64,000 bases of DNA from an uncultured Actinomycetes bacterium (lineage in GTDB: Bacteria; Actinomycetota; UBA4738; HRBIN12), in contig CAVTIC010000007.1 in assembly GCA_963734685.1 (NCBI GenBank), positions 317,232-381,231 on the forward strand, in the 5' to 3' direction. Numbering within the stretch: position 1 is the first letter of the stretch; each line of letters opens with the position of its first letter. Shown here piece after piece: positions 14,487 to 25,004 of this stretch. Under the pieces are notes generated by a model. It was not told the origin of the DNA. It saw only the letters and a list, made by a program, of their open reading frames with translations, and made no database searches. Both the position numbers and the translations under genes were made by a program.

Positions 14487-17021
14487 CTACGGTGCTGCGA
14501 GCAGGTCGCGCACCTCGGCCGCGGTCTCGCACGCGAGGGCGTCCGCAGCGAGCGAACGAGCTTCGTCGAGGGCCGTCGAGCGCACGGCGTCCTTCACGGC
14601 GGCGATCGCCGGCGCGGCCATCGAGAGCTCGCGTATGCCCAGCCCGAGCAACAGCCTCGTGGCGAGTTCGTCGCCCGCCAGCTCTCCGCAGACGCCGATC
14701 CAACGACCGCCCGCCTCCGCGCCGGCGGCCGTCGTCGCGACCAGGCGCAGCACCGCCGGGTGCAGCGGATCGTTCAGCGACGCGACGTGCTCGTTGCCCC
14801 GATCGGCGGCGAGCGTGTACTGGGTGAGATCGTTCGTGCCGATCGAGAAGAAGTCGGCGTCGCCCGCGAGTGCGTCGGCCATGAGCGCGGCGGAAGGCAC
14901 CTCGACCATGATCCCGACCTCGACCGCAGCGTCGATGCCGGTCTCCTCTCTCGCCCGCTGGACGGCAGCCCGAGCTGCGAGGAGTTCGTCGGTCGTCGCG
15001 ATCATCGGGAACATCACCCGCAGGGGGTGGTCGACGGCCACGCGCAGTAGCGCCCGGAGCTGTGCGGCAAGGAGCTCAGGGCGCTCGAGGCCGAGCCGGA
15101 TGCCGCGCACCCCCAGGAACGGGTTCGCTTCCCGGGCCTGTCCGAGGGCGGGGACCGGCTTGTCGGCGCCCGCGTCGAGCGTGCGCACGAGCAAGGGCCG
15201 GCCTTCGAGCGCCTCGGCGGCGCCTCGGTAGGCGGCTTCCTGCTCGTGTTCGTCCGGCAGGGCGTCGCGATCCATGAACAGGAACTCGGTGCGGAACAGC
15301 CCGATACCGTCGGCGCCCGCCTCGACGGCGGCTGCGACCTCGCCCGGCCCGCCGACGTTCGCGGCCACCTCGATGACCGTGCCGTCCAGGGTCGTCGCGG
15401 GTTCGGCGGCGTGCGCGCGCAGCCGTGCGAGGCGGTCGATGCGCTGCCGCCGTTCGGTCTCCAACCGTGCCACGACCTCGGCAGGTGGATCGATGCGCAC
15501 CTCGCCTCGATCACCGTCGACCGCGAGCGACGATCCTTCGGGCACCGAGAGCATGTGCGGTCCCACGCCGACGACGGCAGGGATGCCCAGCGCCCGCGCG
15601 AGCACGGCTGCGTGCGAGGTCGGGCCGCCGTGCGAGGTGACGATGCCGAGCGCCGTCGCAGGGTCGAGCCCGGCGGTGTCGGCGGGTGTGAGGTCCGCGG
15701 CCACCAGGATGCCGGGTGCGTCGAGCCGAGCCGCCGGCACTTCCACCCCCAGGATGCGCGCGAGCACCTGTGTGCCCACGCTGCGCAGGTCGATCGCTCT
15801 CGCCCGCATGTACGCGTCGTCGAGCGTGTCCCAGGTGGCGGCGACGCCGTCAACCGCGTCGTGCCACGCGCGGGCGGCGCTGTCGCCCTTGTCGCGGATC
15901 GAGGCACGGGCTGGCTCGAGCAGGGCATCGTCGCGCAGGAACAGCAGGTGCGCGTCGAAGATGCGCGCCTCGTCCTCGCCGGCCCGGGCGGCGACGTCGT
16001 CGCGTTGGCTCGTGATCGCTTCGCCGGCCTCGCGGACGGCCGCCTCGAGTGCGGCGAGCTCGCGCGCAGCATCGGTCGTCCCTGCGTCTGGCACCTCGAG
16101 CGGCGGCGAGTGGAATCGGCGCAACTCGCCGACGGCCACCCCGGGCGAGGCGGCGAACCCAGCCAGCACGCCCTCGGCGGTCGGCTCCCCGGTGCCGGGG
16201 AGCGCCTCCGCCGTCGGCGTCACACCTCCGTCGACGGCAGGCGCCTCGGTCACATCGGCCGGCTCGTCGAACCGCCGGGCGGCGAGCGCCTCGAGCGCGG
16301 CGATCGCATCGACGGCCCCCGGGCCGGACGCTCGCACCTCCACCTCGTGGCCCGAGCGCACCCCGAGCGTGGCCACGGCGTTCAGGCTCGTGGCATCGGC
16401 CGGCCCGCCGCCGGTCGTGAGGTTCCGCACGCTCACGGAGGCGTCGAACCCCGCGGCGGTCTGCACGAAGCGAGCCGCTGGCCGAGCATGCAGCCCGTGG
16501 GGCACGTCGACCACGAGCACCCCGACCACCGCCTCGCCGTCGACCACATCGGGAACCGTTGCCAGGGAAACATCTCCACCCTCCGACGCGGCGACCGTTC
16601 CGAGGTGCGCGATCTTGCCCGCGAGGCCCATGCGGGCTTCCGCCGCCACCGCCTCGAGCGGCATGCCGAGCTTGGCGGTGACGGCCGCGGCCACCGCGCC
16701 CTCGACGAGCGGAGCCTCGCAGAGGAGGATGCGGTGCCGCCGCTCGTCGCCCATCAGGTCGACCGCCATCTCGGCGGAGAGCACGGCGCTCCCGAGATCC
16801 ATCAGCACGAGCACGCCGTCGTCGGACCACGCACGTTCGATCGCCTGCATCACGAGCACTGCGTCGGTGCCGATCGGACGCCCGGACCCCTCGGCGCCGT
16901 CGATGGCCGCGAGTCCGCCCGCCGTCTCGAGCTGCACCTCGGTCCCGCCCATCTCGCGCGCGAGTTCGGCGACGCCTTCGGCGATGCGGTGACTGTGCGA
17001 CACGATCACGATGCCGACCAC
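14487..17021 (-). CDS. dhaM: DhaM-type multiphosphoryl transfer protein: EIIA(Man-like), HPr and complete enzyme I
   Basis: GIVIVSHS..DLGSA..APLVEG; GLHARPAA; TSHAAVLAR; GLFRTEFLF, NPFLGVRGIR, FSIGTNDLTQY, GVCGELAG. Confidence 0.9.
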   Translation of the reverse strand: MVGIVIVSHSHRIAEGVAELAREMGGTEVQLETAGGLAAIDGAEGSGRPIGTDAVLVMQAIERAWSDDGVLVLMDLGSAVLSAEMAVDLMGDERRHRILLCEAPLVEGAVAAAVTAKLGMPLEAVAAEARMGLAGKIAHLGTVAASEGGDVSLATVPDVVDGEAVVGVLVVDVPHGLHARPAARFVQTAAGFDASVSVRNLTTGGGPADATSLNAVATLGVRSGHEVEVRASGPGAVDAIAALEALAARRFDEPADVTEAPAVDGGVTPTAEALPGTGEPTAEGVLAGFAASPGVAVGELRRFHSPPLEVPDAGTTDAARELAALEAAVREAGEAITSQRDDVAARAGEDEARIFDAHLLFLRDDALLEPARASIRDKGDSAARAWHDAVDGVAATWDTLDDAYMRARAIDLRSVGTQVLARILGVEVPAARLDAPGILVAADLTPADTAGLDPATALGIVTSHGGPTSHAAVLARALGIPAVVGVGPHMLSVPEGSSLAVDGDRGEVRIDPPAEVVARLETERRQRIDRLARLRAHAAEPATTLDGTVIEVAANVGGPGEVAAAVEAGADGIGLFRTEFLFMDRDALPDEHEQEAAYRGAAEALEGRPLLVRTLDAGADKPVPALGQAREANPFLGVRGIRLGLERPELLAAQLRALLRVAVDHPLRVMFPMIATTDELLAARAAVQRAREETGIDAAVEVGIMVEVPSAALMADALAGDADFFSIGTNDLTQYTLAADRGNEHVASLNDPLHPAVLRLVATTAAGAEAGGRWIGVCGELAGDELATRLLLGLGIRELSMAAPAIAAVKDAVRSTALDEARSLAADALACETAAEVRDLLAAP

Positions 17022-17032
17022 CGCAGGCCGCC

Positions 17033-17407
17033 TCAGGCCCTCGAGGCCAGCACGCCGATCAACAGGAAGCCGTAAGCGATCGTGACGACGCCGAGCACGA
17101 CGAGTCCACGTTCCAACAGGCGGCGCAGGCTCTGGGACAGACCGAAGTCGAGCAACACGGAGCGCAGCCCCAGCATCGCGTGCACGGTCACGACGACCAG
17201 GAACACGCCTTCGAGCACGAAGATGATCGGCGTGCTGATGTAGTCGAGCACGTCCTGGTAGGTGCGTAGCCCGCCGATCTCGTCGACGACGAAGTGATGG
17301 GCGACCATGTGGATCGTCACGAGCAGGAGCAGCGAGACGCCGGTGATCGCCGTCCATCGCCAGCTGCGTGACCGCGCCGATCGTTCGGATGACGTCCTCG
17401 TCGCCAT
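17033..17407 (-). CDS. SdhD-like hydrophobic membrane anchor
   Basis: Three TMs; ITGVSLLLLVTIHM and VHAMLGLRSVLLDF heme-ligand helices. Confidence 0.85.
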   Translation of the reverse strand: MATRTSSERSARSRSWRWTAITGVSLLLLVTIHMVAHHFVVDEIGGLRTYQDVLDYISTPIIFVLEGVFLVVVTVHAMLGLRSVLLDFGLSQSLRRLLERGLVVLGVVTIAYGFLLIGVLASRA

Positions 17408-17871
17408 CAGCCGTCCGCCCCGAAGACGTGGAGCCCCGAGTACACGAGCAGGATCGCGCCGAACGCCATGAGCGACCAGAACAGGGCCTTCTGATGGTCC
17501 GGCACGAAGCCGCTGCCGACGAGGGACAGGCGTGTGCCGTTGAGGCCGTGCACGAGGAGGCCGAACACGAGCAGCACGTCGAGCCCGAGGAACAACGGTG
17601 TCGTCGCGATCTCGAGGAAGCCGTTCCAGGCATCTTCGCCCCCGAGGAGCATCGAGAGCACGGCCAGATGTAGGTAGAGGTAGAAGACGAGCCCGAGACC
17701 GGTGATGCGGTTCATCGAGAACGCGAGGTGGCCCGTGCTCCGGCTGCGCACGTCGAACCATGCGACCGGTCCGGGGAGCTTCCGTGAGACCGGCCCGCCA
17801 CCGCGACGGGAACGCAGGATCTCCTCGACTCCGGGGTCGCGCTCGGGTGCGGATGTCCGTGGCTCGTTCAC
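17407..17871 (-). CDS. SdhC-like cytochrome b subunit
   Basis: FSMNRITGLGLVFYLYLHL and LVHGLNGTRL; three TMs. Confidence 0.87.
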   Translation of the reverse strand: MNEPRTSAPERDPGVEEILRSRRGGGPVSRKLPGPVAWFDVRSRSTGHLAFSMNRITGLGLVFYLYLHLAVLSMLLGGEDAWNGFLEIATTPLFLGLDVLLVFGLLVHGLNGTRLSLVGSGFVPDHQKALFWSLMAFGAILLVYSGLHVFGADG

Positions 17872-18626
17872 GCGGGGGCCCCGCTCGAGCTCGTCGGAGC
17901 TTCGGGCACCGCACGGCCCTGCTCTCTGCGGTGGTGCCTGAGCTCCTTGCGGAGCGCCATGATCCGCTGGGCGGGGCGCACGTCGCTCGGGCATGCCTCG
18001 GTGCACTCGAACGCGGCGTGGCATCGCCACGCGCCGGCGTCCTGGTCGGCCCAGTCGAGGATCGCCGCTCGATCGGCGCCTCGTGATTCCTCCAGCAGCC
18101 GCTGCGCGTACGCGAGTGCCGCGGGGCCGATGTAGGAGTCGTCGGTCGCCGCAACCGGGCAGGCCGAAAGGCACAGGCCGCACTCGATGCAGTCCTCGTA
18201 CCGTTCGTGCTCGGCGATCCCCTCAACCGTGGCCGACTCCGGCAGGTACTCGCTCTCGCGAACGATCGGATGAGGATCGGGGTAGCGCGCCATGAACGTG
18301 GCCATGTCGACGATCACGTCGTGCAGCACCGGCAGGTTCGCGATCGGGTCCACGGTGATGGTGCCCGCGACGTCGGAGAGCTTGGTCACGCACGCGAGCC
18401 GTTCCCTGCCGTTCACGCGCACCCCGCATGTGCCGCAGGAAGCGTGGAAGCACGAATGCCTGAGTCCCAGCGTCGGGTCTCGGTGCAGGTGGATCCAGCG
18501 GAGCGCCTCGAGCACGGTCGTGCGTTCGTCGAACGGGACTTCGTGCTCTTCCATGTGCGGTGCCTCATCGCCACGCTTGAAGCGGTGCACGCGCAGCGTC
18601 CGCGTCGCGTCGGCGTTCGTCGTCAT
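17868..18626 (-). CDS. SdhB/FrdB-like iron-sulfur subunit
   Basis: SCFHASCGTCGVRVNGRERLAC (2Fe-2S), CIECGLCLSACP (4Fe-4S), YIGPAAL, WRCHAAFECTEACP (3Fe-4S). Confidence 0.92.
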   Translation of the reverse strand: MTTNADATRTLRVHRFKRGDEAPHMEEHEVPFDERTTVLEALRWIHLHRDPTLGLRHSCFHASCGTCGVRVNGRERLACVTKLSDVAGTITVDPIANLPVLHDVIVDMATFMARYPDPHPIVRESEYLPESATVEGIAEHERYEDCIECGLCLSACPVAATDDSYIGPAALAYAQRLLEESRGADRAAILDWADQDAGAWRCHAAFECTEACPSDVRPAQRIMALRKELRHHRREQGRAVPEAPTSSSGAPA

Positions 18627-19801
18627 GCCGCGTACGCCGCCGTGTGTGGGAGCAGCACCGTGTCGCGCGTCGCGCACGGCACATCGATGCCGAGCTTGCG
18701 GCACACGACGTCGGCGCAGACCTCGGCCATGCCGCGCAGCGTCGTGCCCTTGCCGCCGGTGATCGTGACGAAACCTTGCACACCGTCGTCCACAGCGTGG
18801 TCGATCGTCTTGAACGTGCGCGAGAGCTCGCGGCCCGAGTCGGCGTCGTCCCGCGAGCCGATCAACGGCCGTGCCGCCGACCACGCCGAGCGGAACTCGG
18901 CCTCGCGCACCGCGGGCACGAGCAGGGAGCCTTCCTCCACCATGCGTTGCACGTGGTCGGCCGGCACACCGAGGTCGTCGGGGTCCTCGACCACCCACGA
19001 GCTGGTGCCGACGACCGAGAGGGCGCGCTGGGGCACCACGATGTCGCCGTCGCCCGAGGCGTGGAGGCGATTGATCACCATGTTGCAGAGACGACCGCGC
19101 ACCGCCAGCATCACGCCGGGGGAGGGGCGGATGGGTACGTCCACCCCGGCCATGCGCGCGACCTGTTCCGACCAGGGGCCCGTCGCGTTCACCACGAGGT
19201 CGGCCCCGATCCGTGTCTCCCGCCCGGTCACGAGATCGCGGACGCGCGCGCCCGAGACGATTCCGCCGGCGAGGTCGAGGTCGATCACGTCGACCCAGTT
19301 CAGCAGGTCTGCGCCGCTGGCCTTCGCCGTGGCGAAGAAGCGCAGCGGCATGCGCATCGCGTCCATCGTGGCGTCGGGCACGCGCACCGCGACCTTCAGT
19401 GCGGGGTTCAAGAGGGGCTCCAGGCGCAGCGCCTCGTCGGGCTGCAGCACCTGCGTGGGGATGCCGGTCCGTTCGCAGCCCTCGAGGAACGAAGGCAGGT
19501 ACGCCATGTCCTCGTCGGTCACCCCCACGAACAGGCCGTCGTTCTCCTCGAACGAGCCCGGCGCGATGCGGCGGAGCAGCATGTTCTCCTCGATGCACTC
19601 GACCGCCGATTCCTCGTCGTTCACGGCGTAGCGCGCACCGCTGTGCAGCAAGCCGTGGTGACGCCCGGTCGTGCCCGAGGTGAACTCGCCGCGTTCGACG
19701 AGCGTGACGCGCACTCCACGCAGGGCGAGATCGTGGGCGAGGGCGCCGCCGGTGCCGCCGCCGCCCACGATCAGGACGTGTGGCGCCGAGCCTCCGGTCA
19801 T
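18623..19801 (-). CDS. glpA: GlpA-type FAD-dependent glycerol-3-phosphate dehydrogenase, short form (392 aa)
   Basis: IVGGGGTG, SGTTGRHHGLLHSGARYAVND, ECIEEN..LRRIAP, VNATGPW, DGDIVVP, ITGGKGTT. Confidence 0.87.
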   Translation of the reverse strand: MTGGSAPHVLIVGGGGTGGALAHDLALRGVRVTLVERGEFTSGTTGRHHGLLHSGARYAVNDEESAVECIEENMLLRRIAPGSFEENDGLFVGVTDEDMAYLPSFLEGCERTGIPTQVLQPDEALRLEPLLNPALKVAVRVPDATMDAMRMPLRFFATAKASGADLLNWVDVIDLDLAGGIVSGARVRDLVTGRETRIGADLVVNATGPWSEQVARMAGVDVPIRPSPGVMLAVRGRLCNMVINRLHASGDGDIVVPQRALSVVGTSSWVVEDPDDLGVPADHVQRMVEEGSLLVPAVREAEFRSAWSAARPLIGSRDDADSGRELSRTFKTIDHAVDDGVQGFVTITGGKGTTLRGMAEVCADVVCRKLGIDVPCATRDTVLLPHTAAYAA

Positions 19802-20079
19802 CGACGAATCATCGCACGCGGTCCCGGCTCGGGTTCAGTCTTCGTCCTCCTCCTCGCCTCCTGCCCGCGGGCGAAATCGCCGCGTCGCGGCGTGACGGGC
19901 TGTTCGTCCTCGTCGGCCTGCCCTTCGGCGAACGTGCCCTTCGGCACCTCGTCGGGCTCGTTGTGGTCTTGCTCCTGGCCCTCGGCAAAGTCGCCGTGGG
20001 TGTCTTCGTCCGGGTCGTGATCGGCTTGTCCCTCGGCGAACGACCCCTCGTGCTCGTCGTGCTCGCGGTCTTCGGTCAT
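19798..20079 (-). CDS. Small acidic, His-containing repeat protein with four G[S/D/T]FA[E/R]GQ motifs; 3' end possibly frameshifted (alternative stop at 19835)
   Basis: Strong GAGGAGG RBS; repeats GSFAEGQ, GDFAEGQ, GTFAEGQ, GDFARGQ. Confidence 0.7.
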   Translation of the reverse strand: MTEDREHDEHEGSFAEGQADHDPDEDTHGDFAEGQEQDHNEPDEVPKGTFAEGQADEDEQPVTPRRGDFARGQEARRRTKTEPEPGPRAMIRR

Positions 20080-20119: not shown

Positions 20120-21616
20120 TCACTCGACCCAGTCGAACGTGCGGGTCACCGCCTTCTTCCAGTCGGCGTACTCGGACGCGACCTTGTCCTCGGACATCTG
20201 CGGCGTCCACTCCTTGTCCTTCCCCCAGTTCTGGCGCAGGTCGTCGGTGGAGCTCCAGAAACCGACGGCGAGCCCCGCCGCGTAGGCGGCGCCGAGCGCG
20301 GTCGTCTCAGCGACCTTCGGCCGGATCACCGGCACCCGCAAGCAGTCGGCCTGGAACTGCATCAGCAGGTCGTTGTAGACCATGCCGCCGTCGACCTTCA
20401 GCTCCTTGAGGGTGACGCCAGAGTCGGCCTCCATCGCGTCGAGCACCTCGCGGGTCTGCCAGGCCGTGGCCTCCAGGGTCGCCCGCGCCACGTGCCCCTT
20501 GTTCACGTAGCGCGTGAGGCCGACGATCACACCGCGTGCGTCGCCTCGCCAGTACGGAGCGAACAGGCCCGAGAACGCCGGCACGAAGTAGATGCCCCCG
20601 TTGTCCTCCACCGTCGCCGCCAGCTCCTCCACCTCCTCCGACGTGCTGATCAGGCCCAGGTTGTCGCGGAGCCACTGCACGAGCGCGCCGGTGATGGCGA
20701 TGGCGCCTTCCAGGCAGTACACGGCCGGCGCGTCGCCGAGCTTCCAGCCGACCGTCGTCAGCAGCCCGCTCTTGGATTGGACGATGTCGGTGCCGGTGTT
20801 GAGCAGCATGAAGTTGCCGGTGCCGTAGGTGTTCTTCGCATCGCCCACGTCGTAGGCGGCCTGCCCGAACGTCGCGGCCTGCTGATCGCCGAGGTCACCG
20901 GCCACCGGGATGCCGGCGAGCGTCCCCTTCGCCTCGGCGTAGACGGCCGACGAGGGCTCGATCGAGGGGAGCATCGAGCGCGGGACGCCGATCGCCGAGA
21001 GCAGGTCGTCGTCCCAGTCGAGCGTCTCGAGGTTCATCAGCATCGTGCGGCTCGCGTTGGTGACGTCGGTCACGTGCCGCCCGCCATCGATGCCGCCCGT
21101 CAGGTTCCAGATGCACCACGTGTCCATGTTGCCGAACATCAGGTCTCCGGCCTCGGCCCGCGCCCGAACCCCTTCGACGTTGTCGAGGATCCATCGGACC
21201 TTCGTGCCCGAGAAATACGTGGCGAGCGGAAGGCCGGTCCTCTCGCGGAACCGGTCCTGGCCGCCGTCGGCAGCCAGCTCGTCCACGAGGCCCTGCTGAC
21301 GGGTGTCCTGCCAGACGAGCGCGTTGTGCACCGGCTCGCCGGTCGCACGATCCCAGACGAGCGCGGTCTCGCGTTGGTTCGTGATGCCCACGGCGGCGAG
21401 GTCGCTCGCGGCGATCCCCGACTTCTGGAGGGCGCCGTCGATCACCTGGGTTGCTCGGGTCCAGACCTCGTTGGCATCGTGCTCGACCCACCCCGGCTTC
21501 GGGAAGATCTGCTCGTGCTCCTTCTGGTCGATGCCGACCACCTGACCGCCGTGGTCGAAGATCATGAAGCGTGTGCTGGTCGTGCCCTGGTCGAGAGCAC
21601 CGACGTAGTCAGCCAT
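20120..21616 (-). CDS. glpK: Glycerol kinase
   Basis: [62 protein letters not shown]. Confidence 0.97.
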
Positions 21617-21633
21617 CTGGGCCTCCTCCGATG

Positions 21634-22285
21634 TCAGGCGTCGCCGACCCAAGTGTCGGCGACGGTACGCAACAACAGGTAGCTCGAGGTCGCGCCGGGG
21701 TCTTGATGCCCGGCGCTGCGTTCTCCGAGGTAGCTTGCTCGGCCCTTCCGAGCCACGAGCGGGATCGTGGCCGTCATCCCTTCCTCAGCGGCGTCGGCCG
21801 AGCGACGGAGCGCCGCGGGCAGCTCCGCTCCGTCTGCGACCGCGGCGGCGAACGCGTCACGGCCGGGGATCAGCGCGTCGACCATCGTCTTGTCACCGGG
21901 CTCCGCCTTGCCCCGTGCCTGCACGCCCGAGACCGCGGCGGCGAGCGCAGCCGACCAATCGTCGGGCGTGATCTCGCTCTTGCCGGCCGTGGCGACGCCC
22001 AGCTGCAGGAACAACGTGCCGTACAGGGGCCCACCGGCCCCGCCCACCGTCGAGACGAGGGTCATGCCGACGGTCTTGAAGAGGGCGCCGATGTCGCCGG
22101 GTGGCGCCGAATCCAGCTTTGGCGAGCACCGCCTGGAATCCACGGTCCATGTTGATGCCGTGGTCGGCGTCGCCGATCGCGGAGTCCAGCTCGGTGAGGT
22201 ATGCCTTGTTCTCCGCGATCGTGGCAGCGTACGTCTTCAGCCACACGACCACATCGTCGTAGGGGACACCCATGCCCTCGCTCAT
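21634..22285 (-). CDS. dhaL: Dihydroxyacetone kinase ADP-binding subunit L, with an extra-base frameshift at about 22118-22120 (probable assembly error)
   Basis: [18 protein letters not shown] in one frame; [39 protein letters not shown] in the next; extra A in gccAAAgctg. Confidence 0.88.
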
Positions 22286-22331
22286 GCCGGCGTACACCCT
22301 CCCGTTCCGCCGCCCGCCATGGGCGGGGGGT

Positions 22332-23333
22332 TCAGACCCCCCACCGCAGGCCGGCCGTCTTCACCGGAGCGTCCCACAGCTGCGTGAAGTCGTCGTTCAG
22401 CTTCAGCAGCGTGATCGAGCATCCGGCCATCTCGAGCGAGGTGATGTACGAGCCGATCAGGTTCCGCGAGATCGTGATGCCCCGACCCGACAGGAACTTG
22501 TTGAGCTCGTTGAAGACGATGTACAGCTCGATCATCGGCGTGCCGCCCATGCCGTTCACGAACGCCAGCACCTGGTCGCCCGAGCTGAACGGAAGGTCGC
22601 CGACGATCGCGGTCGCCATCATGTCGACGATCTCCGAGGCTTGCTTCATCTTCATGCGCTCGCGCCCGGGCTCGCCGTGGATGCCCACGCCCATCTCGAT
22701 CTCGTCGTCGCCGAGCTCGAAGGTGGGTGTGCCCGCCGCCGGCACGGTGCACGACGTGAGCGCCATGCCCATCGAACGGCCGTTGGCGTTCACCTCGCGG
22801 CAGATGTCGGCGACCTCCTTCAGGGGCCGCTTCTGTTCGGCGGCCGCGCCGGCGATCTTCTCCATCAGCACGGTCGTGCCGACGCCGCGGCGACCCGCCG
22901 TGTACAGCGAGTCCTGCACGGCCACGTCGTCGTCGACGACGACCGACTCGACGTCGATGCCCTCGGCGCGGCAGAGCTCCGCCGCCATCTCGAAGTTCAT
23001 GACGTCACCGGTGTAGTTCTTCACGATGTGCACCACGCCGGCGCCGCCGTCGACGGCCTTCGTGGCCGCTTCCATCTGGTCGGGGGTGGGAGAGGTGAAG
23101 ACCTCGCCGGGGCAAGCCGCGTCGAGCATGCCGGCGCCGACGAACCCGCCGTGCATCGGCTCGTGTCCGGACCCTCCACCCGAGATCAGGGCCACCTTGC
23201 CCCGCACGGGGGCGTCGGCCCGGGTGATGGAGTACGGATCGTAGGAGACCTTGACGAGGTCAGGGTGCGCCGCCTCGATGCCCTGGAGCTCCTCCCGGAC
23301 GACGTTCGCCGGGTCGTTGATCAGCTTCTTCAT
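22332..23333 (-). CDS. dhaK: Dihydroxyacetone kinase substrate-binding subunit K
   Basis: [47 protein letters not shown]. Confidence 0.97.
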
Positions 23334-23360
23334 GCGTACCTCGCTTCCCGTCTGGAGGGG

Positions 23361-23391
23361 CGGCGGGAGGGCTCACGGGACCCTCCCGCCG
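23361..23391. other. 11-bp perfect stem-loop between glpF and dhaK (intra-operon structure, no U-tract)
   Basis: CGGCGGGAGGG-N9-CCCTCCCGCCG. Confidence 0.5.
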
Positions 23392-23397
23392 ACGTCG

Positions 23398-24144
23398 CTA
23401 GAGCTCGAAGATCGCCTTCGCCGCGAGCGCCCCGAGCACTCCGCCGATGACCGGCCCGACGACCGGGATCCACGAGTAGGCCCAGTCGGAGCTGCCCTTG
23501 CCGGCGATCGGCAGGATCGCGTGCATGATGCGCGGCCCGAGGTCGCGGGCCGGGTTGATCGCGTACCCGGTCGGTCCGCCGAGCGACAGGCCGATGACGA
23601 GCACCAGCAGGCCGACGGGCAGAGCGCCGGTCGCGAGCCATCCGCCGGCGGCGACGTCTTCGCCGAAGGCCTGCGGCACGATCGCGAGGATCCCGAAGAC
23701 CAGCATGAATGTGCCGACGATCTCGGTGATCAGGTTCGCAGCCGTGTTGCGGATCGCGGGCCCGGTCGAGAAGACCGCGAGCTTGAGGCCCGCGTCGTCG
23801 GTGTCGGCCCAGTGCACGAGGTATGAGAGGTACACCAGCAAGGCACCGATCGCCGCGCCGAGGAACTGACCTGCGATCAGCGTCGGCACGTCGCTCCACT
23901 CGACCAGGTCGATCGAGGCAAGGCCGATCGTGACGGCGGGGTTCAGGTGCGCGACGCCGCCGCTCACCGCGACGCTCGCCAGCACCCCCATGAAGACCGC
24001 CATGCCCCACGCCCAGGTGATGACGATCCACCCGCCGTTCTGCGCCTTGGACTTGTTCAGAAGCACCCCGGCGACGACCCCGTCGCCGAGCAAGATCAGC
24101 ACCGCGGTGCCGACCACCTCTCCTTGGAACATCTGAGCGACCAC
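23398..24144 (-). CDS. glpF: Glycerol uptake facilitator (MIP family aquaglyceroporin)
   Basis: SGGVAHLNPAVT and GYAINPARDLGPR (aquaglyceroporin NPARD); start 24144 or 24132. Confidence 0.95.
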   Translation of the reverse strand: MVAQMFQGEVVGTAVLILLGDGVVAGVLLNKSKAQNGGWIVITWAWGMAVFMGVLASVAVSGGVAHLNPAVTIGLASIDLVEWSDVPTLIAGQFLGAAIGALLVYLSYLVHWADTDDAGLKLAVFSTGPAIRNTAANLITEIVGTFMLVFGILAIVPQAFGEDVAAGGWLATGALPVGLLVLVIGLSLGGPTGYAINPARDLGPRIMHAILPIAGKGSSDWAYSWIPVVGPVIGGVLGALAAKAIFEL

Positions 24145-24257
24145 CCCCTCCGTACCGGGTCCCACCGTCGGGACCGTGTCGAGGTGAGCCAACTCCGTTC
24201 GTAATGAGATGTCAATAGTTCGAAAACATCGCATCTCTCTCGACATGACACAACAAC

Positions 24258-24274
24258 GTTCGGTATCGTCGAAC
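24258..24274. promoter_or_regulatory. Candidate GylR (IclR) operator in the divergent glp promoter region
   Basis: Palindrome GTTCG-gtatcgt-CGAAC; degenerate copy at 24218-24234; TTGACA on both strands (24210-24215 minus, 24291-24296 plus). Confidence 0.6.
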
Positions 24275-24368
24275 ATGCCGTGCACGAGATTTGACACCAC
24301 TAGGGGGCGGTTCGATGGTGACGGCGTTGACAGAGCGACCTGATCACGGGCCCGGGAGGATGTTCGAC

Positions 24369-25004
24369 GTGTACGACGACACCACGATCCGCCGGTGGGT
24401 GCGTGGGTGCGCCGACGAGGTCGCGGCGAACCGAGACTTCCTCACGCAGCTCGACGCGGCGATCGGTGACGCCGACCACGGCATCAACATGGACCGCGGC
24501 TTCTCGGCGGCCGTCACCGACCTCGATGCCACCACCGATCTGCCCGCCGGCGAGCTCTTGATCCGGGTCGGCGGAACGTTGATCTACCGCGTGGGCGGGG
24601 CGGCCGGGCCGCTGTTCGGCACCTGCCTGCGCCGGGCGGGTGAGTCGTTCGGCGACGCCGGCGAGTTCGATGCCGAGGACCTATTGAAGGCATTGCGAGC
24701 CGGCCTGGACGGCATCCAGGGGCTGGGGGCGGCAGAGGAGGGCGACAAGACGATCGTCGACGCGTATGCGCCGGCCCTCGCAGCCTTCGAACGGGAGCTG
24801 CGGGCGGGAGGTGACGGAGCGTCGGCCTCGCGCAAGGCGGCCGATGCAGCCCGCGATGGGGTTCGCGCCACCGTGCCGATGCAGGCGCGGAAGGGGCGGG
24901 CGTCGTACCTCGGGCCGCGCAGCGTGGGGCATCAGGATCCGGGGGCCACCTCGACCGCGTACCTGTTCGGGGCGCTCGCGCGATCGCTGGACGGTGATCG
25001 TTGA
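24369..25004 (+). CDS. dhaL: Second DhaL paralog
   Basis: [56 protein letters not shown]; start 24369 or 24360. Confidence 0.88.
   Translation: MYDDTTIRRWVRGCADEVAANRDFLTQLDAAIGDADHGINMDRGFSAAVTDLDATTDLPAGELLIRVGGTLIYRVGGAAGPLFGTCLRRAGESFGDAGEFDAEDLLKALRAGLDGIQGLGAAEEGDKTIVDAYAPALAAFERELRAGGDGASASRKAADAARDGVRATVPMQARKGRASYLGPRSVGHQDPGATSTAYLFGALARSLDGDR

Follow-up and report, generated by a model that had tools for sequence, protein, structure and literature searches.

A predicted complex II-like glycerol-3-phosphate:menaquinone oxidoreductase with a GlpA-type flavoprotein in the place of SdhA

Complex II is taught as a fixed SdhA or FrdA head on an SdhB relay, and GlpD, a flavoprotein dehydrogenase of glycerol-3-phosphate (G3P), works as a monotopic homodimer. 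Here we describe four adjoining genes, designated glpA', sdhB', sdhC', and sdhD', in a 64,000-nucleotide stretch of DNA from an uncultured soil Actinomycetes bacterium (contig CAVTIC010000007.1; the whole stretch is called the window below), which combine a short flavoprotein of the GlpA type with an SdhB-type iron-sulfur subunit and two membrane anchor subunits of the succinate dehydrogenase type. The closest described arrangement is that of Thermofilum-related archaea, in which genes corresponding to sdhB, sdhC, and sdhD come after glpA; a "GlpA-SdhBCD (T. pendens)" was drawn from synteny in Fig. 9 of the paper concerned and was read as serving membrane anchoring and electron transfer (Schmerling et al. 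2025, Commun Biol 8:539, PMC11962113). The same paper states that no GlpA crystal structure exists and that canonical glpA of bacteria consistently co-occurs with glpB and glpC, and it reports that the short GlpA of Sulfolobus acidocaldarius reduces quinones in vitro without a partner.

The module in the window has the gene order of the Thermofilum system, glpA followed by counterparts of sdhB, sdhC, and sdhD, and differs from it in being bacterial and in occurring in several phyla; this comparison was made on the published gene order. With the Escherichia coli-type GlpABC it shares the catalytic domain (positions 1-379 of the TIGR03377 profile) and, in other bacteria, the same slot within glpF-dhaKL-glpK-...-dhaM, whereas GlpA' has no BFD [2Fe-2S] domain, and SdhB together with a predicted integral di-heme anchor replaces GlpB and GlpC. 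The Sdh2 of Mycobacterium smegmatis (PDB ID: 6LUM) resembles the module in that SdhB' matched 6lum_B at 1.8e-37 and the anchors matched 6lum_C and 6lum_D with the four heme histidines aligned; unlike Sdh2, the module has no SdhA but a flavoprotein of the DAO family, the substrate of which is presumably G3P. The GlpA-CoxG pair of S. acidocaldarius (PMC11962113) likewise has a short GlpA without iron-sulfur cysteines and a partner gene downstream, but that partner, a CoxG-like tether to the membrane, carries no redox centers, whereas a full iron-sulfur and heme chain is predicted here. GlpD would share the reaction and has the DAO fold (GlpA' against 2qcu, 2.5e-12); it differs in having a DAO_C domain, for which there was no match in the genome of the window.

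From the genes and the predicted models, we consider it probable, at roughly 80%, that the four genes encode a di-heme, complex II-like (type A) G3P:menaquinone oxidoreductase in which GlpA' occupies the place of SdhA. In this enzyme, glycerol would enter via GlpF and be phosphorylated by GlpK, and the resulting G3P would be oxidized to dihydroxyacetone phosphate (DHAP) at the flavin adenine dinucleotide (FAD) of GlpA'. Electrons would pass to the [2Fe-2S] cluster of SdhB', which would substitute for the missing BFD cluster of canonical GlpA, then onward via the [4Fe-4S] and [3Fe-4S] clusters of SdhB', and would reach the di-heme cytochrome b of SdhC' and SdhD' and finally menaquinone. From the redox potentials, the oxidation of G3P by menaquinone is downhill.

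Composition of the module

On the minus strand, the four reading frames overlap at all three junctions (ATGA at 18623-18626, GTGA at 17868-17871, and TGATG at 17405-17409), and exact reading placed the start of sdhD' at 17407, a small correction. GlpA' matched the DAO family (PF01266) at 2.3e-45 in Pfam and the GlpA family (TIGR03377) at 1.8e-130 in NCBIfam, the latter over positions 1-379 of 530 only and with a score of 436, below the equivalog cut-off of 552.8. No BFD-type iron-sulfur domain was listed for GlpA' in the Pfam and NCBIfam profile searches, and this, together with the end of the match at position 379, indicated that GlpA' is truncated relative to canonical GlpA. The motif GTTGRHHGLLHSGARY corresponds to residues 43-58 of GlpA'. 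The residues conserved in long GlpAs, e.g., H53, R57, Y58, R311, R328, H335, and K351, were also conserved in the short class. Judging by GlpD, these residues are presumably the G3P/FAD site.

SdhB' scored 192.7 bits against TIGR00384 (cut-off 88) and matched PF13085 at 1.3e-26; it departs from the habit of the TIGR00384 family in that it is not encoded with SdhA or FrdA. All 11 cluster cysteines (C59, C64, C67, C79, C146, C149, C152, C156, C202, C208, and C212) were invariant in an alignment of 56 rows. SdhC' and SdhD' were both above the PF01127 (Sdh_cyt) cut-off of 25.8, at 35.1 bits (1.6e-8) and 45.0 bits (1.4e-11), respectively. Among relatives, H68 and H108 of SdhC' and H33, H38, and H76 of SdhD' were invariant.

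A profile search of the PDB aligned H68 and H108 of SdhC' with His C47 and His C87 of 6LUM (match to 6lum_C, 4.4e-27), and H33 and H76 of SdhD' with His D65 and His D107 (match to 6lum_D, 2.4e-18). In M. smegmatis Sdh2, the axial ligands are His C87 and His D107 for heme bP and His C47 and His D65 for heme bD, according to PMC7447783. The alignment of the four anchor histidines with these heme ligands indicated an anchor of the two-subunit, two-heme type A, and SdhC' and SdhD' together show the features of that type, namely two Sdh_cyt subunits and four axial histidines. SdhC'D' is thus, on alignment, a predicted di-heme type A anchor. The invariance of the 11 cysteines and the four heme histidines suggested that the redox chain is under selection.

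An initial reading of the letters of the window, referred to here as the sequence-only reading, had described four genes chained by these start/stop overlaps, a GlpA/DAO-type first gene of 392 residues ending without the C-terminal BFD-like domain, a second gene with all three SdhB cluster motifs, and two SdhC- and SdhD-like anchors with two transmembrane histidines each. The exact reading of the minus strand and the family assignment of each gene by profile (GlpA/DAO, SdhB, Sdh_cyt, and Sdh_cyt) bore this description out, including the pair of histidines in SdhC', but not the pair in SdhD', which has three invariant histidines rather than two.

Gene order, descent, and the dehydrogenase genes of the genome

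When one genome for each prokaryotic species was scanned with a profile, 597 loci were confirmed, and the counts of public loci given here refer to the best 80 of the 597. These comprised 65 loci with a short GlpA (stop no more than 18 residues from the alignment end), 13 with a long GlpA, and 2 that ran off the contig end. sdhB' lay directly downstream of 61 of the 65 short GlpA genes; the contig ended within 300 nucleotides (nt) in two of the remaining loci, and the other two (L067 and L106) were without SdhB'. SdhB' was found downstream of none of the 13 long GlpA genes. Among the 61 loci with short GlpA and SdhB', 43 had SdhC'/D', 14 had no anchor genes within at least 900 nt, and 4 reached the contig end too soon. 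In 79 of the 80 loci, the sequence up to 6 kb from glpA' contained no SdhA-like gene. The gene of L106 is short but falls in the canonical clade, with 3.2 kb before dhaM; it is presumably a canonical glpA that was split or mis-assembled.

Close relatives gave the same picture. In the genus of the window's organism, glpA' was found in 22 of 24 other genomes, its identity being 78-93% (less in copies with broken frames), with sdhB' beside it in all 22 and mostly with sdhC' and sdhD' as well; frame breaks within module genes occurred in three low-completeness assemblies of the genus. Seven loci represent other genera of the family, and each has the sdhB'C'D' genes. Outside the family but within the order, the only matches were of 31-36% identity, and none had sdhB'. 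Among 401 evenly sampled Actinomycetota genomes, the window's own included, 54 matched the GlpA family at E up to 1e-60. Members of the window's own family carry the high-identity short type, as do three genomes from two further families; three members of the window's family had long-frame GlpA matches (43-45% identity) instead of the short type. These tallies include genomes marked unpublished: G019 (locus L016, among the 22 carriers), G029 (L036) and G037 (L035), the last two being two of the five weak matches outside the genus, and G063, G160, G186, G212, and G272, which are five of the 54 phylum matches (42-45% identity). No conclusion is based on these unpublished genomes alone. By their labels in the scan of the best 80 loci, the carriers belong to Actinomycetota, many Chloroflexota, Dormibacterota, Thermodesulfobacteriota or Desulfovibrio, and Spirochaetota. 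Chance adjacency was rejected on these counts (22/22, 7/7, and 61/65 against 0/13), and the possibility that glpA' is a pseudogene remnant of a long glpA was rejected because the stop lies within the same 18 residues in 65 loci.

The two-gene form without SdhC/D (L062, L066, L069, L070, L073, L077, L087, L092, L096, L098, L103, L112, L114, and L097) was found in Thermodesulfobacteriota, Spirochaetota, and a few other hosts. glpK was near only 1 of the 16 loci of this anchor-less group, and the neighbors there are unrelated to glycerol (DnaJ, NUDIX, PntB, MCP, and integrase).

Quick trees were constructed for both proteins. In the GlpA tree (78 rows), 64 short rows formed one clade with a support of 99 by the Shimodaira-Hasegawa-like approximate likelihood ratio test (SH-aLRT), and the 13 long rows and L106 lay opposite. 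In the SdhB tree (61 rows), the 56 GlpA-linked rows formed one clade with a support of 95, with five SdhA-linked SdhBs outside. The sub-groups of SdhB mirrored the GlpA tree, with Actinomycetota nested among Chloroflexota, a large Anaerolineae group, and the anchor-less group. As far as sequence comparison goes, GlpA' and SdhB' are inherited together. SdhB' of the window shares only 35% identity with the canonical SdhB encoded in the same genome, versus 41-52% with GlpA-linked SdhBs of other phyla.

The strongest argument for function, in our analysis, comes from a shared gene slot. Chloroflexota and Actinomycetota repeatedly show the cassette glpF-dhaK-dhaL-glpK-[module]-dhaM. Of 42 anchor-bearing loci, 32 have glpK as a direct neighbor, as do 9 of the 13 canonical loci. 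In the place of the module, L107, L108, L111, and L117 have a long glpA and enough space for glpBC. The occupation of one slot by either glpA'sdhB'C'D' or glpABC suggests that the module does the job of GlpABC.

The genome assembly of the window (3.64 Mb, 11 contigs, 92.9% complete) was searched for other partners and other G3P dehydrogenases. One match to the SdhA C-terminal domain (PF02910) was obtained by profile search, and tblastn with the genome's own SdhA (E up to 1e-4) found no second SdhA/FrdA/NadB-type gene. The sole sdhA found belongs to a canonical sdhC-sdhD-sdhA-sdhB operon located on a different contig and already has its own sdhB, sdhC, and sdhD; there is therefore no orphan sdhA for SdhB' to serve. 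The GlpD-specific DAO_C domain (PF16901) had zero matches and GlpB had no match above the cut-off in this 92.9% complete assembly, and the GlpC profile gave a weak match only, to the iron-sulfur part of SdhB'. With no GlpD or GlpB found, glpA' is the only FAD-type G3P dehydrogenase gene found in the genome.

Five further carrier genomes, the completeness of which is not established, were compared. Two of the five had zero SdhA matches, and their single SdhB is linked to GlpA; in the remaining three, the SdhBs not linked to GlpA all adjoin an SdhA-type gene, and the GlpA-linked SdhB' does not. Another four carriers have a second SdhB that adjoins SdhA. The own-genome searches and the SdhB neighbors in the five carriers led us to reject the idea that SdhB' has an orphan sdhA as its true partner. 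In L080, a Dormibacterota metagenome-assembled genome (MAG), the GlpA-linked module lies about 5-6 kb from a canonical sdh operon on the same contig.

Much of what the sequence-only reading had supposed about the surroundings of the module was thus confirmed. It had placed the four genes in the glycerol operon downstream of glpK, and the domain assignments of the neighbors agree. It had seen neither SdhA nor GlpBC beside the module, and the genes downstream of glpA' are indeed sdhB', sdhC', and sdhD', with GlpB below the cut-off genome-wide. The separate canonical sdh operon for which it had left room was found as sdhCDAB on another contig, and the orphan sdhA that it named as a possible true partner was not found by the PF02910 and tblastn searches. 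It had proposed a search for conserved glpA-sdhBCD synteny without sdhA; sdhB' adjoins glpA' in 22/22 carriers of the genus, 7/7 loci of the family, and 61/65 short GlpA loci, 79 of the 80 loci have no SdhA-like gene nearby, and in the SdhB phylogeny that it proposed, the GlpA-linked SdhBs formed a separate clade matching the topology of GlpA'.

Metatranscriptome contigs from four runs of two studies mapped onto all four module genes, and single contigs from RNA libraries spanned the glpA'/sdhB', sdhB'/sdhC', and sdhC'/sdhD' junctions, which lends weak support to the proposed reading.

Predicted contact and rival explanations

GlpA' (54-row alignment) and SdhB' (56 rows) were co-folded with FAD and a 2Fe-2S cluster. 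The scores were 0.91, 0.91, and 0.92 over three runs, against 0.00 for the best of three controls. Of 80 solved complexes, 58 reach the mark for a confident contact, as do 2 of 110 mismatched pairs; this calibration is rough here because custom alignments and small molecules were used in the runs. The contacts agreed between runs to at least 66%, and the predicted local distance difference test (pLDDT) of the partner was at least 81. The predicted interface sets residues 54-66 and 79-80 of SdhB', the loop of the [2Fe-2S] cysteines, against residues 38-47 and 145-150 of GlpA', among others, and the stretch 38-47 overlaps the FAD-loop motif. PDB sequence searches returned no GlpA structure and no complex of a DAO-family protein with SdhB, so it is unlikely that the score stems from a memorized structure. 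The sequence-only reading had made an interface between GlpA and SdhB a point on which its proposal would stand or fall, and co-folding returned a confident predicted contact. The prediction supports, but does not show, that GlpA' binds SdhB' at the [2Fe-2S] loop.

Several points weigh against a complex II-like oxidoreductase. The quinone reduction by the partner-free short GlpA of S. acidocaldarius (PMC11962113) implies that an iron-sulfur relay is not chemically required. No SdhB was found within 6 kb of the short GlpA of L067, and the 14 loci without a nearby anchor indicate that membrane coupling is not universal in the family. The co-fold covers the GlpA'/SdhB' pair without anchors and gives contacts, not a distance from FAD to [2Fe-2S]. 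Only 3 of 8 positions specific to the short class fall in the interface, which makes up 14.5% of the residues (approximately p = 0.1, calculated by hand), and the interface is no more conserved than the rest (0.61 versus 0.65 elsewhere). The SdhA-linked SdhBs used for comparison numbered only five and came from the same genomes as the GlpA-linked ones. The RNA-library contigs are possibly derived from DNA and cannot show a single transcript, and the GlpA'-SdhB'C'D' assembly is a prediction from genes and models.

Some of these points would fit a different explanation, in which GlpA' is a self-sufficient, peripheral, quinone-reducing G3P dehydrogenase and SdhB'C'D' is a docking site or has a separate role, with no electron path between them. 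The activity of the S. acidocaldarius enzyme in vitro, the lone short GlpA in L067, and the 14 anchor-less loci all agree with it. We nevertheless regard it as unlikely, since the 11 cysteines of SdhB' and the four heme histidines are invariant, as expected of a redox chain under selection, the predicted contact is exactly that of the [2Fe-2S] loop with the FAD loop, and SdhB' is retained by 61 of the 65 short GlpAs. The lone short GlpA (L067:5983-7152, from a Thermoflexales MAG) belongs to the SdhB-linked clade and lies beside a convergent LacI-type regulator.

The proposed architecture might instead serve another substrate or direction, such as a 2-hydroxy or amino compound or a quinol-driven reduction of DHAP. 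The TIGR03377 score below the equivalog cut-off and the anchor-less group, with glpK nearby in 1 of 16 loci and neighbors unrelated to glycerol, would be in line with this. We judge it quite improbable for the window, where a glycerol cassette holds the genes, with glpK on one side and dhaM on the other; 32 of the 42 anchor-bearing loci have glpK next to glpA', canonical glpA occupies the same slot elsewhere, GlpA' keeps the residues conserved in long GlpAs, and, with no GlpD or GlpB found, it is the only FAD-type G3P dehydrogenase found in the genome. That SdhB'C'D' forms a second module for canonical SdhA, an alternative succinate dehydrogenase with incidental adjacency to glpA', is very improbable despite the SdhB family score above the cut-off and the resemblance of the anchors to Sdh2, given that the genome's one sdhA already has its own sdhB, sdhC, and sdhD, that two carrier genomes (completeness not established) show no SdhA, that SdhB' forms a clade apart from SdhA-linked SdhB and tracks the GlpA' tree, and that start/stop overlaps join glpA' to sdhB'.

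The complex II-like G3P:menaquinone oxidoreductase, i.e., a swapped flavoprotein on SdhBCD with SdhB as the iron-sulfur relay, as the sequence-only reading had proposed it, is supported by the genome searches, the synteny, the trees, and the co-folding; it was the novelty of that proposal that did not hold in full, a design of this kind having already been drawn for archaea.

Neighboring genes, novelty, and implications

The gene order in the window is glpF, dhaK, dhaL, glpK, a small acidic open reading frame (ORF), glpA'sdhB'C'D', and dhaM, with glpX further on (Table 1).

Table 1. Coordinates of the module genes and of their neighbors in the window
Feature	Position	Strand	Assignment
glpA'	18623-19801	-	Short GlpA-type FAD-dependent glycerol-3-phosphate dehydrogenase, 392 amino acids, without BFD [2Fe-2S] domain
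sdhB'	17868-18626	-	SdhB-type iron-sulfur subunit, 252 amino acids; ligands for [2Fe-2S], [4Fe-4S], and [3Fe-4S]
sdhC'	17407-17871	-	Membrane anchor subunit, 154 amino acids, GTG start; PF01127
sdhD'	17033-17407	-	Membrane anchor subunit, 124 amino acids; PF01127
Small acidic ORF	19798-20079	-	93 amino acids; G[DST]FAEGQ repeats; no Pfam family
glpK	20120-21652 (ORF bounds; true start probably a few codons in)	-	Glycerol kinase, supplies the substrate; PF00370 (1.1e-73), PF02782 (7.5e-48)
dhaM	14487-17018 (start approximate)	-	dhaM-type EIIA-HPr-EI fusion, directly after sdhD'; PF03610, PF00381, PF05524, PF00391, PF02896
Upstream part of cassette	21634-24300	-	dhaL (two frames), dhaK (22332-23333), glpF (23398-24300); PF02734, PF02733, PF00230

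The small ORF is very acidic and rich in histidine, with three to four of the repeats, and its stop overlaps the glpA' start. It is kept upstream of glpA' across the genus, with a variable number of repeats, and in L043 and L044, and it may or may not belong to the G3P dehydrogenase system. An RNA-library contig covering 19754-20032 overlaps it. The dhaL gene (21640-22261, minus strand) is split over two frames, one corresponding to residues 28-75 and the other to residues 87-236 of the full-length paralog. In the close relatives L043 and L044, dhaL is in a single frame; the break reflects a frameshift or else a fault in the assembly. Upstream of glpF and divergent from it is a second DhaL-type (Dak2) gene, which is of full length (24291-25004, plus strand). 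The dhaM gene encodes a five-domain fusion, EIIA(Man)-HPr-EI, the EI part comprising N, mobile, and phosphoenolpyruvate-binding domains, and the same fusion was found 3' of the module in many Chloroflexota and Actinomycetota loci.

A full-text literature search for the term "GlpA-SdhBCD" returned only Schmerling et al. (2025) and its preprint, and no other paper on GlpA with SdhB, and no bacterial case, was found in the literature searched, which did not extend to the supplements of Schmerling et al. Neither the clusters of 10 short GlpA representatives nor a protein cluster search gave a named Thermofilum-type archaeal relative; one cluster consisted mostly of Thermoplasmatota. The sequence-only reading had allowed that its arrangement might already be described, and this proved partly so (PMC11962113): the arrangement has been named from synteny in archaea, but not in Bacteria. 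Its remark that no characterized complex of this type was known still stands, the published archaeal case being one of synteny. The bacterial loci with short glpA and sdhB' found here contradict the claim in the same paper that glpABC is the consistent arrangement in bacteria.

What is new here, as far as genes can tell, is that GlpA-SdhB(CD) is widespread in Bacteria, that flavoprotein head and relay are jointly inherited and interchange with glpABC, and that there is a predicted di-heme anchor as well as an anchor-less two-gene form. Beyond this, and only tentatively, the family may be an uncharacterized class of bacterial respiratory enzymes in which a DAO-fold head replaces SdhA on a complex II chassis. 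Such a class would have arisen once, as the single clades of GlpA' and of SdhB' suggest, and would have spread through at least Actinomycetota, Chloroflexota, Dormibacterota, Thermodesulfobacteriota, and Spirochaetota, swapping with glpABC, and it may be the source or the sister of the Thermofilum version. The anchor-less form in anaerobes would then be a soluble dehydrogenase of G3P or a related compound, passing electrons to some acceptor, and the di-heme anchor would make the oxidation of G3P by menaquinone a transmembrane electron transfer.

The annotation of relatives of at least 80% identity as "FAD-dependent oxidoreductase" conceals GlpA', and the system is small, consisting of four genes in 2.8 kb. 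Soil and sediment bacteria commonly carry the design, Chloroflexota and some Actinomycetota in particular, and the only paper found to mention it (PMC11962113) presents it as an archaeal peculiarity. If the proposed oxidoreductase is real, it would join GlpD and GlpABC as a third architecture for the respiratory oxidation of G3P, and the SdhB-SdhCD module would be a reusable electron conduit for unrelated flavoproteins.

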